Positions 1,693-9,548 of a DNA stretch of 10,497 nt are shown here, piece after piece. The position numbers and the translations under genes are program-made. The notes under the pieces are model-generated. The model was not told the origin of the DNA. It saw only the letters and a program-made list of their open reading frames with translations, and did no database searches. How positions within the stretch are numbered: the first letter of the stretch is position 1; every line of letters begins with the position of its first letter. Origin of the DNA: Naegleria gruberi (taxonomy: Eukaryota); the NCBI GenBank assembly GCA_000004985.1, contig GG739015.1. One strand, 5' to 3'.

Positions 1693-4600
1693 NNNNNNNN
1701 NNNNNNNNNNNNNNNNNNNNNNNNNNNNNNNNNNNNNNNNNNNNNNNNNNNNNNNNNNNNNNNNNNNNNNNNNNNNNNNNNNNNNNNNNNNNNNNNNNNN
1801 NNNNNNNNNNNNNNNNNNNNNNNNNNNNNNNNNNNNNNNNNNNNNNNNNNNNNNNNNNNNNNNNNNNNNNNNNNNNNNNNNNNNNNNNNNNNNNNNNNNN
1901 NNNNNNNNNNNNNNNNNNNNNNNNNNNNNNNNNNNNNNNNNNNNNNNNNNNNNNNNNNNNNNNNNNNNNNNNNNNNNNNNNNNNNNNNNNNNNNNNNNNN
2001 NNNNNNNNNNNNNNNNNNNNNNNNNNNNNNNNNNNNNNNNNNNNNNNNNNNNNNNNNNNNNNNNNNNNNNNNNNNNNNNNNNNNNNNNNNNNNNNNNNNN
2101 NNNNNNNNNNNNNNNNNNNNNNNNNNNNNNNNNNNNNNNNNNNNNNNNNNNNNNNNNNNNNNNNNNNNNNNNNNNNNNNNNNNNNNNNNNNNNNNNNNNN
2201 NNNNNNNNNNNNNNNNNNNNNNNNNNNNNNNNNNNNNNNNNNNNNNNNNNNNNNNNNNNNNNNNNNNNNNNNNNNNNNNNNNNNNNNNNNNNNNNNNNNN
2301 NNNNNNNNNNNNNNNNNNNNNNNNNNNNNNNNNNNNNNNNNNNNNNNNNNNNNNNNNNNNNNNNNNNNNNNNNNNNNNNNNNNNNNNNNNNNNNNNNNNN
2401 NNNNNNNNNNNNNNNNNNNNNNNNNNNNNNNNNNNNNNNNNNNNNNNNNNNNNNNNNNNNNNNNNNNNNNNNNNNNNNNNNNNNNNNNNNNNNNNNNNNN
2501 NNNNNNNNNNNNNNNNNNNNNNNNNNNNNNNNNNNNNNNNNNNNNNNNNNNNNNNNNNNNNNNNNNNNNNNNNNNNNNNNNNNNNNNNNNNNNNNNNNNN
2601 NNNNNNNNNNNNNNNNNNNNNNNNNNNNNNNNNNNNNNNNNNNNNNNNNNNNNNNNNNNNNNNNNNNNNNNNNNNNNNNNNNNNNNNNNNNNNNNNNNNN
2701 NNNNNNNNNNNNNNNNNNNNNNNNNNNNNNNNNNNNNNNNNNNNNNNNNNNNNNNNNNNNNNNNNNNNNNNNNNNNNNNNNNNNNNNNNNNNNNNNNNNN
2801 NNNNNNNNNNNNNNNNNNNNNNNNNNNNNNNNNNNNNNNNNNNNNNNNNNNNNNNNNNNNNNNNNNNNNNNNNNNNNNNNNNNNNNNNNNNNNNNNNNNN
2901 NNNNNNNNNNNNNNNNNNNNNNNNNNNNNNNNNNNNNNNNNNNNNNNNNNNNNNNNNNNNNNNNNNNNNNNNNNNNNNNNNNNNNNNNNNNNNNNNNNNN
3001 NNNNNNNNNNNNNNNNNNNNNNNNNNNNNNNNNNNNNNNNNNNNNNNNNNNNNNNNNNNNNNNNNNNNNNNNNNNNNNNNNNNNNNNNNNNNNNNNNNNN
3101 NNNNNNNNNNNNNNNNNNNNNNNNNNNNNNNNNNNNNNNNNNNNNNNNNNNNNNNNNNNNNNNNNNNNNNNNNNNNNNNNNNNNNNNNNNNNNNNNNNNN
3201 NNNNNNNNNNNNNNNNNNNNNNNNNNNNNNNNNNNNNNNNNNNNNNNNNNNNNNNNNNNNNNNNNNNNNNNNNNNNNNNNNNNNNNNNNNNNNNNNNNNN
3301 NNNNNNNNNNNNNNNNNNNNNNNNNNNNNNNNNNNNNNNNNNNNNNNNNNNNNNNNNNNNNNNNNNNNNNNNNNNNNNNNNNNNNNNNNNNNNNNNNNNN
3401 NNNNNNNNNNNNNNNNNNNNNNNNNNNNNNNNNNNNNNNNNNNNNNNNNNNNNNNNNNNNNNNNNNNNNNNNNNNNNNNNNNNNNNNNNNNNNNNNNNNN
3501 NNNNNNNNNNNNNNNNNNNNNNNNNNNNNNNNNNNNNNNNNNNNNNNNNNNNNNNNNNNNNNNNNNNNNNNNNNNNNNNNNNNNNNNNNNNNNNNNNNNN
3601 NNNNNNNNNNNNNNNNNNNNNNNNNNNNNNNNNNNNNNNNNNNNNNNNNNNNNNNNNNNNNNNNNNNNNNNNNNNNNNNNNNNNNNNNNNNNNNNNNNNN
3701 NNNNNNNNNNNNNNNNNNNNNNNNNNNNNNNNNNNNNNNNNNNNNNNNNNNNNNNNNNNNNNNNNNNNNNNNNNNNNNNNNNNNNNNNNNNNNNNNNNNN
3801 NNNNNNNNNNNNNNNNNNNNNNNNNNNNNNNNNNNNNNNNNNNNNNNNNNNNNNNNNNNNNNNNNNNNNNNNNNNNNNNNNNNNNNNNNNNNNNNNNNNN
3901 NNNNNNNNNNNNNNNNNNNNNNNNNNNNNNNNNNNNNNNNNNNNNNNNNNNNNNNNNNNNNNNNNNNNNNNNNNNNNNNNNNNNNNNNNNNNNNNNNNNN
4001 NNNNNNNNNNNNNNNNNNNNNNNNNNNNNNNNNNNNNNNNNNNNNNNNNNNNNNNNNNNNNNNNNNNNNNNNNNNNNNNNNNNNNNNNNNNNNNNNNNNN
4101 NNNNNNNNNNNNNNNNNNNNNNNNNNNNNNNNNNNNNNNNNNNNNNNNNNNNNNNNNNNNNNNNNNNNNNNNNNNNNNNNNNNNNNNNNNNNNNNNNNNN
4201 NNNNNNNNNNNNNNNNNNNNNNNNNNNNNNNNNNNNNNNNNNNNNNNNNNNNNNNNNNNNNNNNNNNNNNNNNNNNNNNNNNNNNNNNNNNNNNNNNNNN
4301 NNNNNNNNNNNNNNNNNNNNNNNNNNNNNNNNNNNNNNNNNNNNNNNNNNNNNNNNNNNNNNNNNNNNNNNNNNNNNNNNNNNNNNNNNNNNNNNNNNNN
4401 NNNNNNNNNNNNNNNNNNNNNNNNNNNNNNNNNNNNNNNNNNNNNNNNNNNNNNNNNNNNNNNNNNNNNNNNNNNNNNNNNNNNNNNNNNNNNNNNNNNN
4501 NNNNNNNNNNNNNNNNNNNNNNNNNNNNNNNNNNNNNNNNNNNNNNNNNNNNNNNNNNNNNNNNNNNNNNNNNNNNNNNNNNNNNNNNNNNNNNNNNNNN

Positions 4601-6434
4601 NNNNNNNNNNNNNNNNNNNNNNNNNNNNNNNNNNNNNNNNNNNNNNNNNNNNNNNNNNNNNNNNNNNNNNNNNNNNNNNNNNNNNNNNNNNNNNNNNNNN
4701 NNNNNNNNNNNNNNNNNNNNNNNNNNNNNNNNNNNNNNNNNNNNNNNNNNNNNNNNNNNNNNNNNNNNNNNNNNNNNNNNNNNNNNNNNNNNNNNNNNNN
4801 NNNNNNNNNNNNNNNNNNNNNNNNNNNNNNNNNNNNNNNNNNNNNNNNNNNNNNNNNNNNNNNNNNNNNNNNNNNNNNNNNNNNNNNNNNNNNNNNNNNN
4901 NNNNNNNNNNNNNNNNNNNNNNNNNNNNNNNNNNNNNNNNNNNNNNNNNNNNNNNNNNNNNNNNNNNNNNNNNNNNNNNNNNNNNNNNNNNNNNNNNNNN
5001 NNNNNNNNNNNNNNNNNNNNNNNNNNNNNNNNNNNNNNNNNNNNNNNNNNNNNNNNNNNNNNNNNNNNNNNNNNNNNNNNNNNNNNNNNNNNNNNNNNNN
5101 NNNNNNNNNNNNNNNNNNNNNNNNNNNNNNNNNNNNNNNNNNNNNNNNNNNNNNNNNNNNNNNNNNNNNNNNNNNNNNNNNNNNNNNNNNNNNNNNNNNN
5201 NNNNNNNNNNNNNNNNNNNNNNNNNNNNNNNNNNNNNNNNNNNNNNNNNNNNNNNNNNNNNNNNNNNNNNNNNNNNNNNNNNNNNNNNNNNNNNNNNNNN
5301 NNNNNNNNNNNNNNNNNNNNNNNNNNNNNNNNNNNNNNNNNNNNNNNNNNNNNNNNNNNNNNNNNNNNNNNNNNNNNNNNNNNNNNNNNNNNNNNNNNNN
5401 NNNNNNNNNNNNNNNNNNNNNNNNNNNNNNNNNNNNNNNNNNNNNNNNNNNNNNNNNNNNNNNNNNNNNNNNNNNNNNNNNNNNNNNNNNNNNNNNNNNN
5501 NNNNNNNNNNNNNNNNNNNNNNNNNNNNNNNNNNNNNNNNNNNNNNNNNNNNNNNNNNNNNNNNNNNNNNNNNNNNNNNNNNNNNNNNNNNNNNNNNNNN
5601 NNNNNNNNNNNNNNNNNNNNNNNNNNNNNNNNNNNNNNNNNNNNNNNNNNNNNNNNNNNNNNNNNNNNNNNNNNNNNNNNNNNNNNNNNNNNNNNNNNNN
5701 NNNNNNNNNNNNNNNNNNNNNNNNNNNNNNNNNNNNNNNNNNNNNNNNNNNNNNNNNNNNNNNNNNNNNNNNNNNNNNNNNNNNNNNNNNNNNNNNNNNN
5801 NNNNNNNNNNNNNNNNNNNNNNNNNNNNNNNNNNNNNNNNNNNNNNNNNNNNNNNNNNNNNNNNNNNNNNNNNNNNNNNNNNNNNNNNNNNNNNNNNNNN
5901 NNNNNNNNNNNNNNNNNNNNNNNNNNNNNNNNNNNNNNNNNNNNNNNNNNNNNNNNNNNNNNNNNNNNNNNNNNNNNNNNNNNNNNNNNNNNNNNNNNNN
6001 NNNNNNNNNNNNNNNNNNNNNNNNNNNNNNNNNNNNNNNNNNNNNNNNNNNNNNNNNNNNNNNNNNNNNNNNNNNNNNNNNNNNNNNNNNNNNNNNNNNN
6101 NNNNNNNNNNNNNNNNNNNNNNNNNNNNNNNNNNNNNNNNNNNNNNNNNNNNNNNNNNNNNNNNNNNNNNNNNNNNNNNNNNNNNNNNNNNNNNNNNNNN
6201 NNNNNNNNNNNNNNNNNNNNNNNNNNNNNNNNNNNNNNNNNNNNNNNNNNNNNNNNNNNNNNNNNNNNNNNNNNNNNNNNNNNNNNNNNNNNNNNNNNNN
6301 NNNNNNNNNNNNNNNNNNNNNNNNNNNNNNNNNNNNNNNNNNNNNNNNNNNNNNNNNNNNNNNNNNNNNNNNNNNNNNNNNNNNNNNNNNNNNNNNNNNN
6401 NNNNNNNNNNNNNNNNNNNNNNNNNNNNNNNNNN
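1693..6434. other. Assembly gap (4,742 N).
   Basis: An uninterrupted run of n from 1693 to 6434. Confidence 1.
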
Positions 6435-6750
6435 GTTTATCTTGTGGAATTTCTTGAATTAATTTCATCATTTCAGAAAAATCATTTTCATTATTAATTA
6501 TATAAATTGTTTTTCTCTTCTCAGAAGATGGAACAATAGCCTTGATCTTGAAAGTGGATAATAACACTTCATCAGAAGAAGTAGCAGATGGCAAATCTTG
6601 AACAAATTCTCTAACAGATTCATTCAAGCCTCCGAAATTAATTAATTGGAAAACCTTTTCAATACTTTCTTCCTTGTTCTTTCTCATGATTAATTTACCA
6701 GTGAGAGTATTATTATTGTTATTATTAGTACACATTTTCTTTCTTATCAA
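6435..6750 (-). CDS. N-terminal part of an unidentified protein, truncated by the assembly gap. It has a poly-Asn tract and a possible ubiquitin-like or beta-grasp type N-terminal region.
   Basis: The minus-strand frame is open from the ATG at 6748..6750 for 105 codons (MIRKKMCTNNNNNNTLTGKLIMRKNKEESIEKVFQLINFGGLNESVREFVQDLPSATSSDEVLLSTFKIKAIVPSSEKRKTIYIINNENDFSEMMKLIQEIPQDK) and continues into the N-run. Its GC content is higher than the flanking DNA. No family can be assigned by eye. Confidence 0.45.
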
Positions 6751-6942: not shown

Positions 6943-7308
6943 CTACCAATACTCACCACAACTACAATTCCCATCTCGTACAATGATGTCACATTCTCTA
7001 ATTTTTGAAATGGCTTTTGCTGCTTGATGGCAATCACCACAAACTCTCAAGTTTGCAGTTATGCAAAGGGTAGATCCTTTTGGTAAAGAAATCAAACCGT
7101 ATGCAATAGCAAGTTTTTCACAATGTTGGAACAGAACTTTTTCTTTTTCCTCTTCAGTGGTGATATCTTTTTTCATGCCCAAACTTGTATCTGGATGGTA
7201 GAGTTTGGATTCCAACAATTCCAACCTTAGCGTATCTAGTTCAGCCCTAATTAGGTTAATCTCTTTATGCTTATCATCCTCACTAACAAATGTAATTACC
7301 CATCTATT
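6943..7308 (-). CDS. PPR gene fragment 3: truncated DYW cytidine-deaminase-like domain.
   Basis: This fragment is in the same frame as fragment 2. It encodes NRWVITFVSEDDKHKEINLIRAELDTLRLELLESKLYHPDT...HCEKLAIAYGLI...NLRVCGDCHQAAKAISKIRECDIIVRDGNCSCGEYW. The HxE lies at about 7117..7125 and the CGDCH at 7027..7041. The stop is TAG at 6943..6945. Confidence 0.8.
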   Translation of the reverse strand, partial: NRWVITFVSEDDKHKEINLIRAELDTLRLELLESKLYHPDTSLGMKKDITTEEEKEKVLFQHCEKLAIAYGLISLPKGSTLCITANLRVCGDCHQAAKAISKIRECDIIVRDGNCSCGEYW

Positions 7309-7761
7309 TCAATTGTGTGTGTGTAAATAAATATTCGACATTAATATGTAAGCTGCAGCATTGGAAGGGCTTTGGGATATCACTCTTTCGAATGCCACTT
7401 CACCAAACTCAATATTGTTATATTTTCTACTAGCTCCCAACAAGGTCATCCAAATTATGGTGTCTGTTTCGTCTGAATCAATAAAGAAATGCGCCTCCTC
7501 TAAAAAACCTGCTCTTCCCAACATGTCTATGATGCAAGTTTTGTGTTTAATGTCTGGTTCAATATCATGATTAGTTTGCATACTTTCATAGATTTGAAAT
7601 CCTTCCTTAATTAATCCACTATGACTACACGCATTCAAAACTGCTGACACAACAAATGTGGTATCATTAGGAGCTATCCTCATTTCTTTGAATATCCTAA
7701 TCGCTTCTGGGAAGTCTTCATGAGTGATATAAATATTCGAGAGTTTGGTGGAATTCGATTA
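7309..7761 (-). CDS. PPR gene fragment 2: last PPR motifs plus the E-type motif, ending LMSNIY (frame B).
   Basis: Frame B is open from 7761 down to TGA at 7309..7311. It encodes ...EAIRIFKEMRIAPNDTTFVVSAVLNACSHSGLIKEGFQIYESM...IDMLGRAGFLEEA...ILMSNIYLHTHN. This is the canonical layout of the last PPR and E motifs of plant PLS proteins. Confidence 0.75.
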
Positions 7762-8681
7762 CTTTTCATCAACTCTAAAACATTCAAAGCTTGAGTGAAA
7801 TTCGAACTGTTAATACATCCCTTGATTAGTGCATGATAGTGAGATGGCAAAATTACTCTAGTTTTGGATGTGAGTATTTGCAGAGCATTTTGGTATTTTC
7901 CAAGACTCGAAAGGGCTAGAATAACATAGCTAAAAGTTTGCTTGTCCGTCTCAATTGAAGATTCCATCTCGCTGAATAACAGTAGTACTTCATTGTAAAG
8001 AGAGTGATGTGCGTATGCGGAAAGCATTGCATTCCATGTTGCTGTTGGTTTCTTCTCCATGCTGTGAANCAGTTCAATAGACCTTTCTAATAACCCACAC
8101 TTGGAGAACATAGAAATGAGGCTTGTTTGGACAATTATATCATTGAAAAATCCACTATTAATAATTAATTCTTCCAGGTTTAAAGCAGATGCTTTTGTGG
8201 TGCATCCAGTACTAATATTACCTCTCATTTCTGATACTGCAATTAACGCTTTTTGAATTTGTTTAGTATTAACTAAAGCTTTGATGTAGCAGGAATAATG
8301 AAACTTGTCAGGTGCCCCAATGTTTCGAAATATTAACTCTGCCTCGAATTGCTTCCACAAGTCCCTTTTCCTTTGCATATCTATTGGTTTTTTAAGGAAC
8401 GTTGTTATAAGATATAAATTTGGTTTATCAATAGCTTTGAATATTTTATCACACTCCTCCACAGAAAACTTTTCTCCCGAAATCAAGAAGGCACCATCAT
8501 AGGAATTAGGGTTTACATAGAATTTCGATAAGGCTTGTTGTTTTCTTGGAAAAGGCTTTTCACGAGGCTGGTTGTAATTTTTTTCATTTTTAAAAAATAG
8601 GAAATTGGTAAGGCCTTTATATATGAGCCAATAAATACTGGCAAGAAATTCCTTACATGCTTTCATTCTTGTTGTTTTCAC
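7680..8681 (-). CDS. PPR gene fragment 1: N-terminal region and degenerate PLS-type PPR repeats (frame A).
   Basis: A 333-aa ORF with repeated PPR-like helices, for example VQTSLISMFSKCGLLERSIEL and TWNAMLSAYAHHSLYNEVLLLFSEME. It contains one X from the n at 8069. Confidence 0.75.
   Translation of the reverse strand: MKTTRMKACKEFLASIYWLIYKGLTNFLFFKNEKNYNQPREKPFPRKQQALSKFYVNPNSYDGAFLISGEKFSVEECDKIFKAIDKPNLYLITTFLKKPIDMQRKRDLWKQFEAELIFRNIGAPDKFHYSCYIKALVNTKQIQKALIAVSEMRGNISTGCTTKASALNLEELIINSGFFNDIIVQTSLISMFSKCGLLERSIELXHSMEKKPTATWNAMLSAYAHHSLYNEVLLLFSEMESSIETDKQTFSYVILALSSLGKYQNALQILTSKTRVILPSHYHALIKGCINSSNFTQALNVLELMKSNRIPPNSRIFISLMKTSQKRLGYSKK
8069..8069. other. Single ambiguous base inside the PPR coding sequence.
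   Basis: An n at 8069, giving an X in the 7680..8681 ORF translation. Confidence 1.
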
Positions 8682-8849: not shown

Positions 8850-9115
8850 TTGATTTTCGTTAATAATTAACAAAAAAAACGAAATAAAAACGTAAACGTT
8901 TGTTGGGAAAAAAATTTCAAATTTACAGGTAAATTAACGCTAAATTTTATCGTAAATTATTGACGATTTTTCAATAATGTTTAACATTAAATATTATTGA
9001 AAAATTGTTATCAAAAAACGTTAATCATTAGCGAAAAATCGTCAATATTTCACAATAAAATTTGACTCATAATTGTCATCAATCATTAACGAAAAACTGT
9101 TAATGATTTACACAC
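8850..9115. repeat. Palindrome and inverted-repeat cluster. It may be a MITE-like element or a structured regulatory module.
   Basis: Near-palindrome gttaataattaac at 8860..8872. A 14-bp inverted repeat attgacgatttttc (8959..8972) pairs with gaaaaatcgtcaat (9033..9046), with a 60-bp spacer. A direct repeat aatcattagcgaaaaa (9023..9038) matches aatcattaacgaaaaa (9081..9096). A perfect hairpin lies at 9081..9108. Confidence 0.5.
9081..9108. repeat. Perfect 10-bp stem / 8-nt loop hairpin palindrome.
   Basis: aatcattaac (9081..9090), then gaaaaact (9091..9098), then gttaatgatt (9099..9108). The two arms are exact reverse complements. Confidence 0.9.
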
Positions 9116-9272: not shown

Positions 9273-9382
9273 TTACCATTAAATTATTCATCATTATCCA
9301 ATAAATCTATTGCATTTAAATTGAATAACTGTAAATAAATTAAATAAATTAAATAAATTAAACAAATTACCATTAAATTATT
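9273..9382. repeat. A 16-bp direct repeat ttaccattaaattatt (9273..9288 and 9367..9382) flanking the minisatellite segment.
   Basis: Identical 16-mers separated by 78 bp. Possibly a duplication, a footprint or a TSD-like structure. Confidence 0.6.
9332..9367. repeat. Tandem 9-mer minisatellite, (TAAATAAAT)x3 plus one variant copy.
   Basis: taaataaat taaataaat taaataaat taaacaaat read directly. Confidence 0.9.
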
Positions 9383-9498: not shown

Positions 9499-9548
9499 NN
9501 NNNNNNNNNNNNNNNNNNNNNNNNNNNNNNNNNNNNNNNNNNNNNNNN
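9499..9548. other. Assembly gap (50 N), probably a placeholder of unknown size.
   Basis: A run of exactly 50 n. Confidence 1.

Follow-up and report, generated by a model that had tools for sequence, protein, structure and literature searches.

The minus strand of a small Naegleria gruberi scaffold carries, in the nuclear genome, what we consider, with good confidence, to be the decaying remains of a gene for a plant-type PLS-PPR/E/DYW organellar RNA-editing factor, most probably without function. Ordinary gene decay is the most likely explanation of the locus, rather than a novel type of enzyme. Its lesions comprise an in-frame TGA codon, a change of reading frame at about 7707-7749, two internal deletions and the replacement of a near-invariant lysine by alanine. 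The window, that is, the whole stretch of DNA analysed, is a complete 10,497-bp scaffold of the nuclear assembly with a G+C content of 26-37%; it contains a 4,742-N gap (1693-6434), a 50-N gap (9499-9548) and a single N at 8069. The gene in question is of the PLS type, with a PPR array and a terminal DYW deaminase domain (Table 1).

The terminal domain matched Pfam DYW_deaminase (PF14432) with 90.8 bits against a cutoff of 24 (E=5e-26), over profile positions 2-93 of 93. Within the remnant, VITF (the second half of the PG box), the gating region, HCE, ANLRVCGDCH and CSCGEYW follow one another in order, and the open reading frame 6946-7308 is translated as NRWVITFVSEDDKHKEINLIRAELDTLRLELLESKLYHPDT...QHCEKLAIAYGL...ANLRVCGDCH...IIVRDGNCSCGEYW before its stop codon. 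The last PPR motifs, which share the frame of the remnant, include the peptides PEAIRIFKEMRIAPNDTTFVVSAVLNACSHSGL and CIIDMLGRAGFLEEA. In the upstream array recognisable PPR motifs are few. The ambiguous base at 8069 lies in this upstream PPR reading frame, in a codon NTT that probably specifies Phe, Leu, Ile or Val, and indicates that read quality or coverage is low on the scaffold.

Table 1. Features of the PPR-DYW locus, in the order in which the gene is read; positions are those of the window.
Feature	Position	Strand	Evidence or remark
PPR array, 5' part, in the other frame	7750..8666	-	Pfam PPR, PPR_2 and PPR_3 matches; ATG at 8664-8666
Frameshift zone in a shortened PPR motif (RIFISLMKTS // PEAIRIFKEM)	7707..7749	-	Frame comparison, tblastn
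Last PPR motifs (P2 remnant, L2, S2), same frame as the DYW remnant	7423..7706	-	Pfam PPR, alignment with 11 homologues, tblastn
E1 motif and beginning of E2	7321..7422	-	Pfam E_motif, profile positions 1-34 of 63; 25.3 bits against a cutoff of 27.3
GT..AG 'intron' of the GenBank model, 36 nt	7304..7339	-	Exact reconstruction of P0001
First deletion junction, LHTHN*NRW (asterisk, stop), with an (AC)5 run	7300..7326	-	Net loss of 78 nt (26 aa)
In-frame TGA stop codon	7309..7311	-	tblastn: homologues run straight across
DYW deaminase remnant, VITF to CSCGEYW	6946..7299	-	Pfam PF14432, PDB sequence matches, AF2 model
HCE, catalytic His and Glu, retained	7117..7125	-	Alignment with homologues
Ala codon at the KNLRVC lysine (OTP86 K915, PPR56 K91)	7054..7056	-	Column 96% K, n=187 homologues
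CGDCH, two catalytic-zinc Cys and second-zinc His, retained	7027..7041	-	Motif present
Second deletion junction R-D|G-N, 27 nt (9 aa)	6967..6978	-	Homologue and structure alignments
CSC, both second-zinc Cys ligands, retained	6958..6966	-	Motif present
EYW	6946..6954	-	Motif present
TAG stop after ...CSCGEYW	6943..6945	-	Translation

Elsewhere on the scaffold, we observed nested inverted repeats at 8938-9063, with 47-nt arms that are 85% and 74% complementary, in very AT-rich DNA about 270-400 bp upstream of the ATG of the PPR reading frame; these may represent a hairpin or a small transposon remnant. The unit TAAATTAAA is repeated in tandem (about 5.8 copies) at 9317-9369, near the 50-N gap. 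About 190 bp past the DYW stop, an Asn-rich reading frame (MIRKKMCTNNNNNNTLTG...; 6435-6750, minus strand), in which no Pfam match was present, enters the 4,742-N gap. A 117-aa reading frame on the plus strand (741-1094) contains a hydrophobic, Cys-rich stretch (FPFWVWVLLFIFCCPCALVFYILH) and may encode a small membrane protein.

The deletions were delimited in alignments with 11 homologues (alignment A1), with the C-termini of 187 intact DYW proteins and with three solved structures, namely the synthetic PPR-DYW protein 9kfx, DYW1 (7w86) and OTP86 (7o4e). The core of the observation made in an earlier note on this DNA, that the domain is shortened internally in two places, holds. The region ahead of the DYW core had been estimated to be some 30 residues short, with PGCSWIE gone, and both the 187 homologues and A1 bear this out, giving a net loss of 26 residues (78 nt). 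Thus, only 9 residues separate NIY from V-x-x-F, as against a consensus of 35 in the 187 intact homologues. The lost segment takes in the larger part of motif E2 and, from the PG box, the PGxSWIEV half. The gene lacks a complete E1 and E2 pair, as the E_motif match stays below its cutoff and the remaining part of E2 is absent in the alignments, and of the PG box (PGxSWIEVxxxxHxF) the V-I-T-F end alone is kept. VHxF had also been counted among the losses. When the sequence was aligned with homologues, both deletions stood whereas this part of the claim fell, since the strand is preserved as VITF in A1 and in the 187-homologue alignment. In A1, VHEFVVGDRSHP is the counterpart of the peptide VITFVSEDDKH, whose F, D and H occupy invariant columns.

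At the second site, RD is followed directly by GNCSC, and the nine residues that the consensus has in between (ANRFHHFKD) are missing in comparison with the homologues and with all three structures (9kfx, 7w86, 7o4e), in agreement with the earlier description of RDGN joined to CSCGEYW with the loss of about nine residues including RFHHF. This deletion takes out the first His of HHF (H947 in OTP86, H123 in PPR56) together with its strand. A six-frame scan detected no PG-box-like or RFHHF-like peptide elsewhere in the sequenced parts of the window, which rules out that the missing segments have merely been displaced within it.

The reading frame had been regarded as preserved through these deletions, a view that overlooked both a stop codon and a frameshift. 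The TGA at 7309-7311 directly precedes NRW and shares the frame of the E1/PPR sequence upstream of it (...MSNIYLHTHN*NRWVITF...). In tblastn searches, homologues align in one frame across this codon, from about 7731-7749 to 6946, and translation of 7683..6943 gives ...AAAYILMSNIYLHTHN, a stop, NRWVITFVSEDDKHKEINLIRAELDTLRLELLESKLYHPDTSLGMKKDITTEEEKEKVLFQHCEKLAIAYGLISLPKGSTLCITANLRVCGDCHQAAKAISKIRECDIIVRDGNCSCGEYW and a second stop. GenBank nevertheless annotates a protein of 234 residues (P0001), which we reproduced exactly as join(7683..7340, 7303..6946). The 36-nt 'intron' of this model (7304-7339) encodes SNIYLHTHN*NR, so that its removal excises the conserved SNIY along with the stop. The N and Y of SNIY occupy nearly invariant columns of A1, and since this conserved peptide lies inside it, the segment is coding-derived and is not credible as an intron. 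Its donor, GTCGAA, is atypical. No figure for Naegleria intron length by which to judge 36 nt was found in the literature searched. The annotated 'intron' is probably an annotation device that masks a stop in coding-derived sequence, and no real intron.

Further upstream, the PPR motifs match homologues in tblastn over 8426..7707 in frame -2, the DYW part being read in frame -1. The PPR array and the deaminase remnant do not share one open reading frame: most of the motifs are out of frame, and the TGA also splits PPR/E1 from DYW. The frameshift zone contains eight GT..AG pairs that are able to restore the frame, including a 56-nt pair at 7707-7762, indicating that such 'introns' arise easily by chance. 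The 56-nt candidate was rejected as a chance match; its removal would excise PPR-like coding sequence (SNRIPPNSRIFISLMKTS).

Structural and mutational work on plant homologues provides a guide to what these changes might mean for activity. In OTP86, H892, C920 and C923 bind the catalytic zinc, and K915 forms a pair with the catalytic E894; H924, H947, C954 and C956 bind the other, structural zinc, and altering any of these four ligands abolishes editing in vivo (PMC7611903). Similarly, the H123A/Y, C130A, C132A and K91A changes in moss PPR56 each abolish editing of both targets, and P2A, located in the PG box, strongly reduces it (PMC10482289). Residue equivalences were counted from the glutamate of HxE in the 187-homologue alignment. 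The HxE...CxxC catalytic zinc site is present as HCE and CGDC(H), and the earlier statement that HCE and CGDCH are intact is thus upheld. The middle residue of HCE is Cys in a column that is 91% S among the homologues, and the protein ends in GEYW followed by a stop, with E replacing D in a column that is 90% D. The second zinc site retains three of its four ligands (the His of CxDCH and the pair in CxC), the equivalent of PPR56 H123 and OTP86 H947 in HHF falling inside the nine-residue deletion. At the position of PPR56 K91 and OTP86 K915 the lysine is replaced by Ala, and the equivalents of PPR56 P2 and G3 were lost with the first deletion.

Of the 30 columns conserved to at least 90%, the gene departs from the consensus in 10, as compared with a maximum of 6 among the 187 intact homologues, although this comparison set consists mostly of land plants, so that part of the divergence could be lineage-specific. 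Half of the departures are substitutions (G to L, S to C in HSE, K to A, R to C and D to E) and the other five are deleted positions. Judging by the mutagenesis of plant homologues, each lesion of the gene would be expected to inactivate the protein, and it is very unlikely that the DYW domain is active. An AF2 model based on a 31-sequence alignment had an overall pLDDT of 87 and a TM score of 0.84 to 9kfx, its best structural matches being 9kfx, 7w86 and 7o4e/f. It contains two beta strands only, and the C-terminal tail is of low confidence (pLDDT 52-62). We did not accept the confidence of the model as proof of a stable or active fold and took it as a reflection of homology.

Relatives were sought with word-indexed protein searches of 5.8 billion clusters, using the C-terminal 246 residues and then the 447-residue PPR part, with a full HMMER search of 1.84 billion representatives and with a metagenome locus scan. 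No relative of at least 50% identity was found among about 15 billion proteins or in the metagenome contigs. Beyond the gene's own model P0001, no match exceeded 45% identity and no second Naegleria protein was present among the matches. The nearest named matches come from Sphagnum, Diphasiastrum and other plants, and there are also metagenome proteins; P0002, P0003 and P0005, which are the nearest protist-like homologues, carry both of the segments missing here. Given that nothing retrieved is more than 45% identical, the gene is not a recent duplicate of any sequence within the searches. The suggestion in the earlier note of a 'decaying paralogue' stands in one half: decay is supported by the stop, the frameshift, the K to A change and the loss of the second-zinc His, whereas a close relative, as expected of a paralogue, was not retrieved. 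When P0001 and the 124-, 93- and 77-aa open reading frames were looked up by exact match, no independent assembly was on record.

Three metagenome contigs of 27-73 kb (L001-L003), presumably from uncultured eukaryotes, encode DYW domains that are 44-45% identical; they are the closest DNA-level relatives found and are not orthologues. PG-box, E2 or gating segments have also been lost from P0029 of the rotifer Adineta steineri and from the plant models P0222, P0195, P0263 and P0286. These internal losses indicate that broken DYW genes or mis-spliced models are frequent.

In an intact ancestor, the PPR array would have bound a mitochondrial transcript, E1, E2 and the PG box would have positioned the target cytidine, and the HxE/CxxC zinc site would have deaminated it to uridine, while the second zinc, bound by the His of CxDCH, the first His of HHF and CxC, would have held the fold. 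In the present copy, a short out-of-frame loss has occurred in the last P motif. A net loss of 78 nt has taken the bulk of E2 and with it the first strand of the deaminase fold, with a nonsense codon at the junction, and a 27-nt loss has eliminated the HHF strand and its zinc ligand. Near-invariant residues are also substituted, as in the K to A change in KNLRVC and the S to C change in HSE. We infer that the gene is no longer under selection. Stop-free stretches of 333, 124 and 121 codons nonetheless persist in DNA of about 33% GC, and such long stretches in AT-rich DNA suggest that the decay is recent, or that some constraint is left. Certain features run counter to decay: of the three length changes, two amount to whole codons; the catalytic HxE and CxxCH survive, as do three of the four ligands of the second zinc; and GenBank annotates a 234-residue protein.

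Similar considerations could be advanced for a functional short protein, either the annotated 234-residue form or a longer spliced one, that has no deaminase competence and serves as a non-catalytic RNA-binding or adaptor protein or depends on a partner. GenBank carries a model that a GT..AG splice reproduces exactly, both deletions in the DYW domain are multiples of three, HCE, CGDCH, CSC and EYW are kept, and the AF2 core is confident and DYW-like. Moreover, about 11 DYW proteins have been counted in N. gruberi against only two known editing sites, and the surplus has prompted proposals of other roles (PMC4202320). The splice that such a protein requires, however, uses the atypical donor GTCGAA and removes a conserved in-frame SNIY, and the resulting model contains about two PPR motifs, too few for specific RNA recognition, the upstream array being out of frame. 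In the DYW donors known to act in trans, every zinc ligand and the lysine of KNLRVC are kept, but here that lysine is Ala and a His ligand is gone, and the protein resembles neither half of the known split plant systems. The protein and metagenome searches also found no conserved relative. Taken together, we regard a functional short protein as unlikely. Its more specific form, in which the locus is transcribed and yields by splicing a short PPR-E1-deltaDYW protein that is selected as a non-catalytic or partner-dependent part of Naegleria mitochondrial RNA processing, seems very improbable. The 'non-canonical variant' acting with a partner that the earlier note had offered fares no better, as core strands and a zinc ligand are missing and translation needs the doubtful 36-nt intron.

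An error in the sequence would account for the lesions in another way, with the real gene intact and the defects produced by low-coverage Sanger reads or by a collapsed or misjoined assembly. The scaffold is merely 10.5 kb long, with a 4,742-N and a 50-N gap and an N inside the gene at 8069, and an independent assembly of the reading frames is not on record; on a small, gapped scaffold with such an ambiguous base, the TGA and the frameshift could be sequencing errors. Base-call errors would not, however, yield the defining deletions. Clean losses of 78 and 27 nt in well-aligned coding sequence are atypical of read errors, and conserved residues are substituted (K to A, S to C, R to C and G to L) in good sequence, so that an artefact is decidedly unlikely as the explanation of the locus. 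It is also conceivable that DYW domains in Naegleria normally have this shortened architecture as a lineage-specific form, which would make it a conserved variant. Adineta steineri P0029 likewise has no PG-box region, but this is a partial model and it keeps HHF. P0002, P0003 and P0005 carry both segments, and the literature describes Naegleria and Acrasis proteins with recognisable E/E+/DYW domains, with a PG box in 12 of 12 Acrasis proteins (PMC4202320). A conserved Naegleria variant is, in our view, exceedingly improbable. A decaying, most probably non-functional relic remains the reading that we favour.

The DYW family, its presence in Naegleria and the gene model are already public. What the present analysis adds is that the GenBank model hides a stop codon and that the encoded domain is very unlikely to be active. 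Gene families such as the DYW-type PPR proteins routinely lose members. The relevance of the locus is accordingly small beyond annotation; the result is useful for annotation and for family counts and will not surprise specialists. As the model rests on a 36-nt intron that hides a stop, family surveys and phylogenies of horizontal transfer should leave it out of their counts and alignments of intact DYW proteins. If at least one N. gruberi DYW gene is a relic, the excess of such genes over the known editing sites shrinks slightly. Were the functional short protein to prove true instead, it would be the first split or helper-type component of a DYW editosome known outside land plants, and would bear on how editosomes split into recognition and catalytic subunits.

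In the order of its parts, the N. gruberi gene is the same as the PLS-class PPR-E1-E2-DYW factors of land plants (PPR56 and PPR65 of Physcomitrium, Arabidopsis OTP86 and the synthetic PPR-DYW protein 9kfx). PPR motifs (P/L/S-like), E1, the gating region, HxE, CxxCH, CxC and a C-terminal (D/E)YW are common to both, and the C-terminal region is 35-45% identical to that of the land-plant proteins. Unlike them, it is without most of E2, the PGxSWIEV strand and the RFHHF strand, and Ala stands in place of the KNLRVC lysine and Cys in place of the Ser in HSE; a stop and a frameshift interrupt its reading frame, and its PPR array is short and degenerate.

A likeness can also be drawn with the split editosomes of plants, in which E+ class PPR proteins work with the trans-acting DYW1, DYW2 or MEF8, to the extent that an incomplete DYW-type protein is possibly partner-dependent. 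E+ proteins, however, are truncated at the C-terminus, end soon after the PG box and keep it, whereas the N. gruberi gene shows the reverse, with the PG box absent, CSCGEYW present and the losses internal. The deaminase that DYW1 and DYW2 contribute is complete and has every zinc ligand, and the structure of DYW1 (7w86) contains RFHHF. The N. gruberi protein differs from these short trans-acting proteins, MEF8 included, as the HHF strand and its ligand are gone and the K915 equivalent is Ala. Other internally deleted DYW models (P0029, P0222, P0195, P0263 and P0286) resemble it in having lost PG-box, E2 or gating sequence from recognisable DYW genes. Their deletion boundaries are different and they come from unrelated lineages, which identifies them as independent events or annotation errors and not as orthologues.

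Within N. gruberi itself, the comparison is with the same gene family in the same organism, and GenBank lists the gene on this scaffold as a predicted protein. The DYW-type PPR genes of N. gruberi have been public knowledge since 2010, reportedly through the work of Knoop and Rudinger. According to a later study, the family has 10-11 members in N. gruberi for two verified mitochondrial C-to-U sites, the surplus has led to proposals of other roles, and the Naegleria and Acrasis proteins have recognisable E/E+/DYW domains, the PG box being conserved in all 12 Acrasis proteins (PMC4202320). The family is thus described with full E/E+/DYW extensions, whereas the copy on this scaffold is internally deleted and interrupted.
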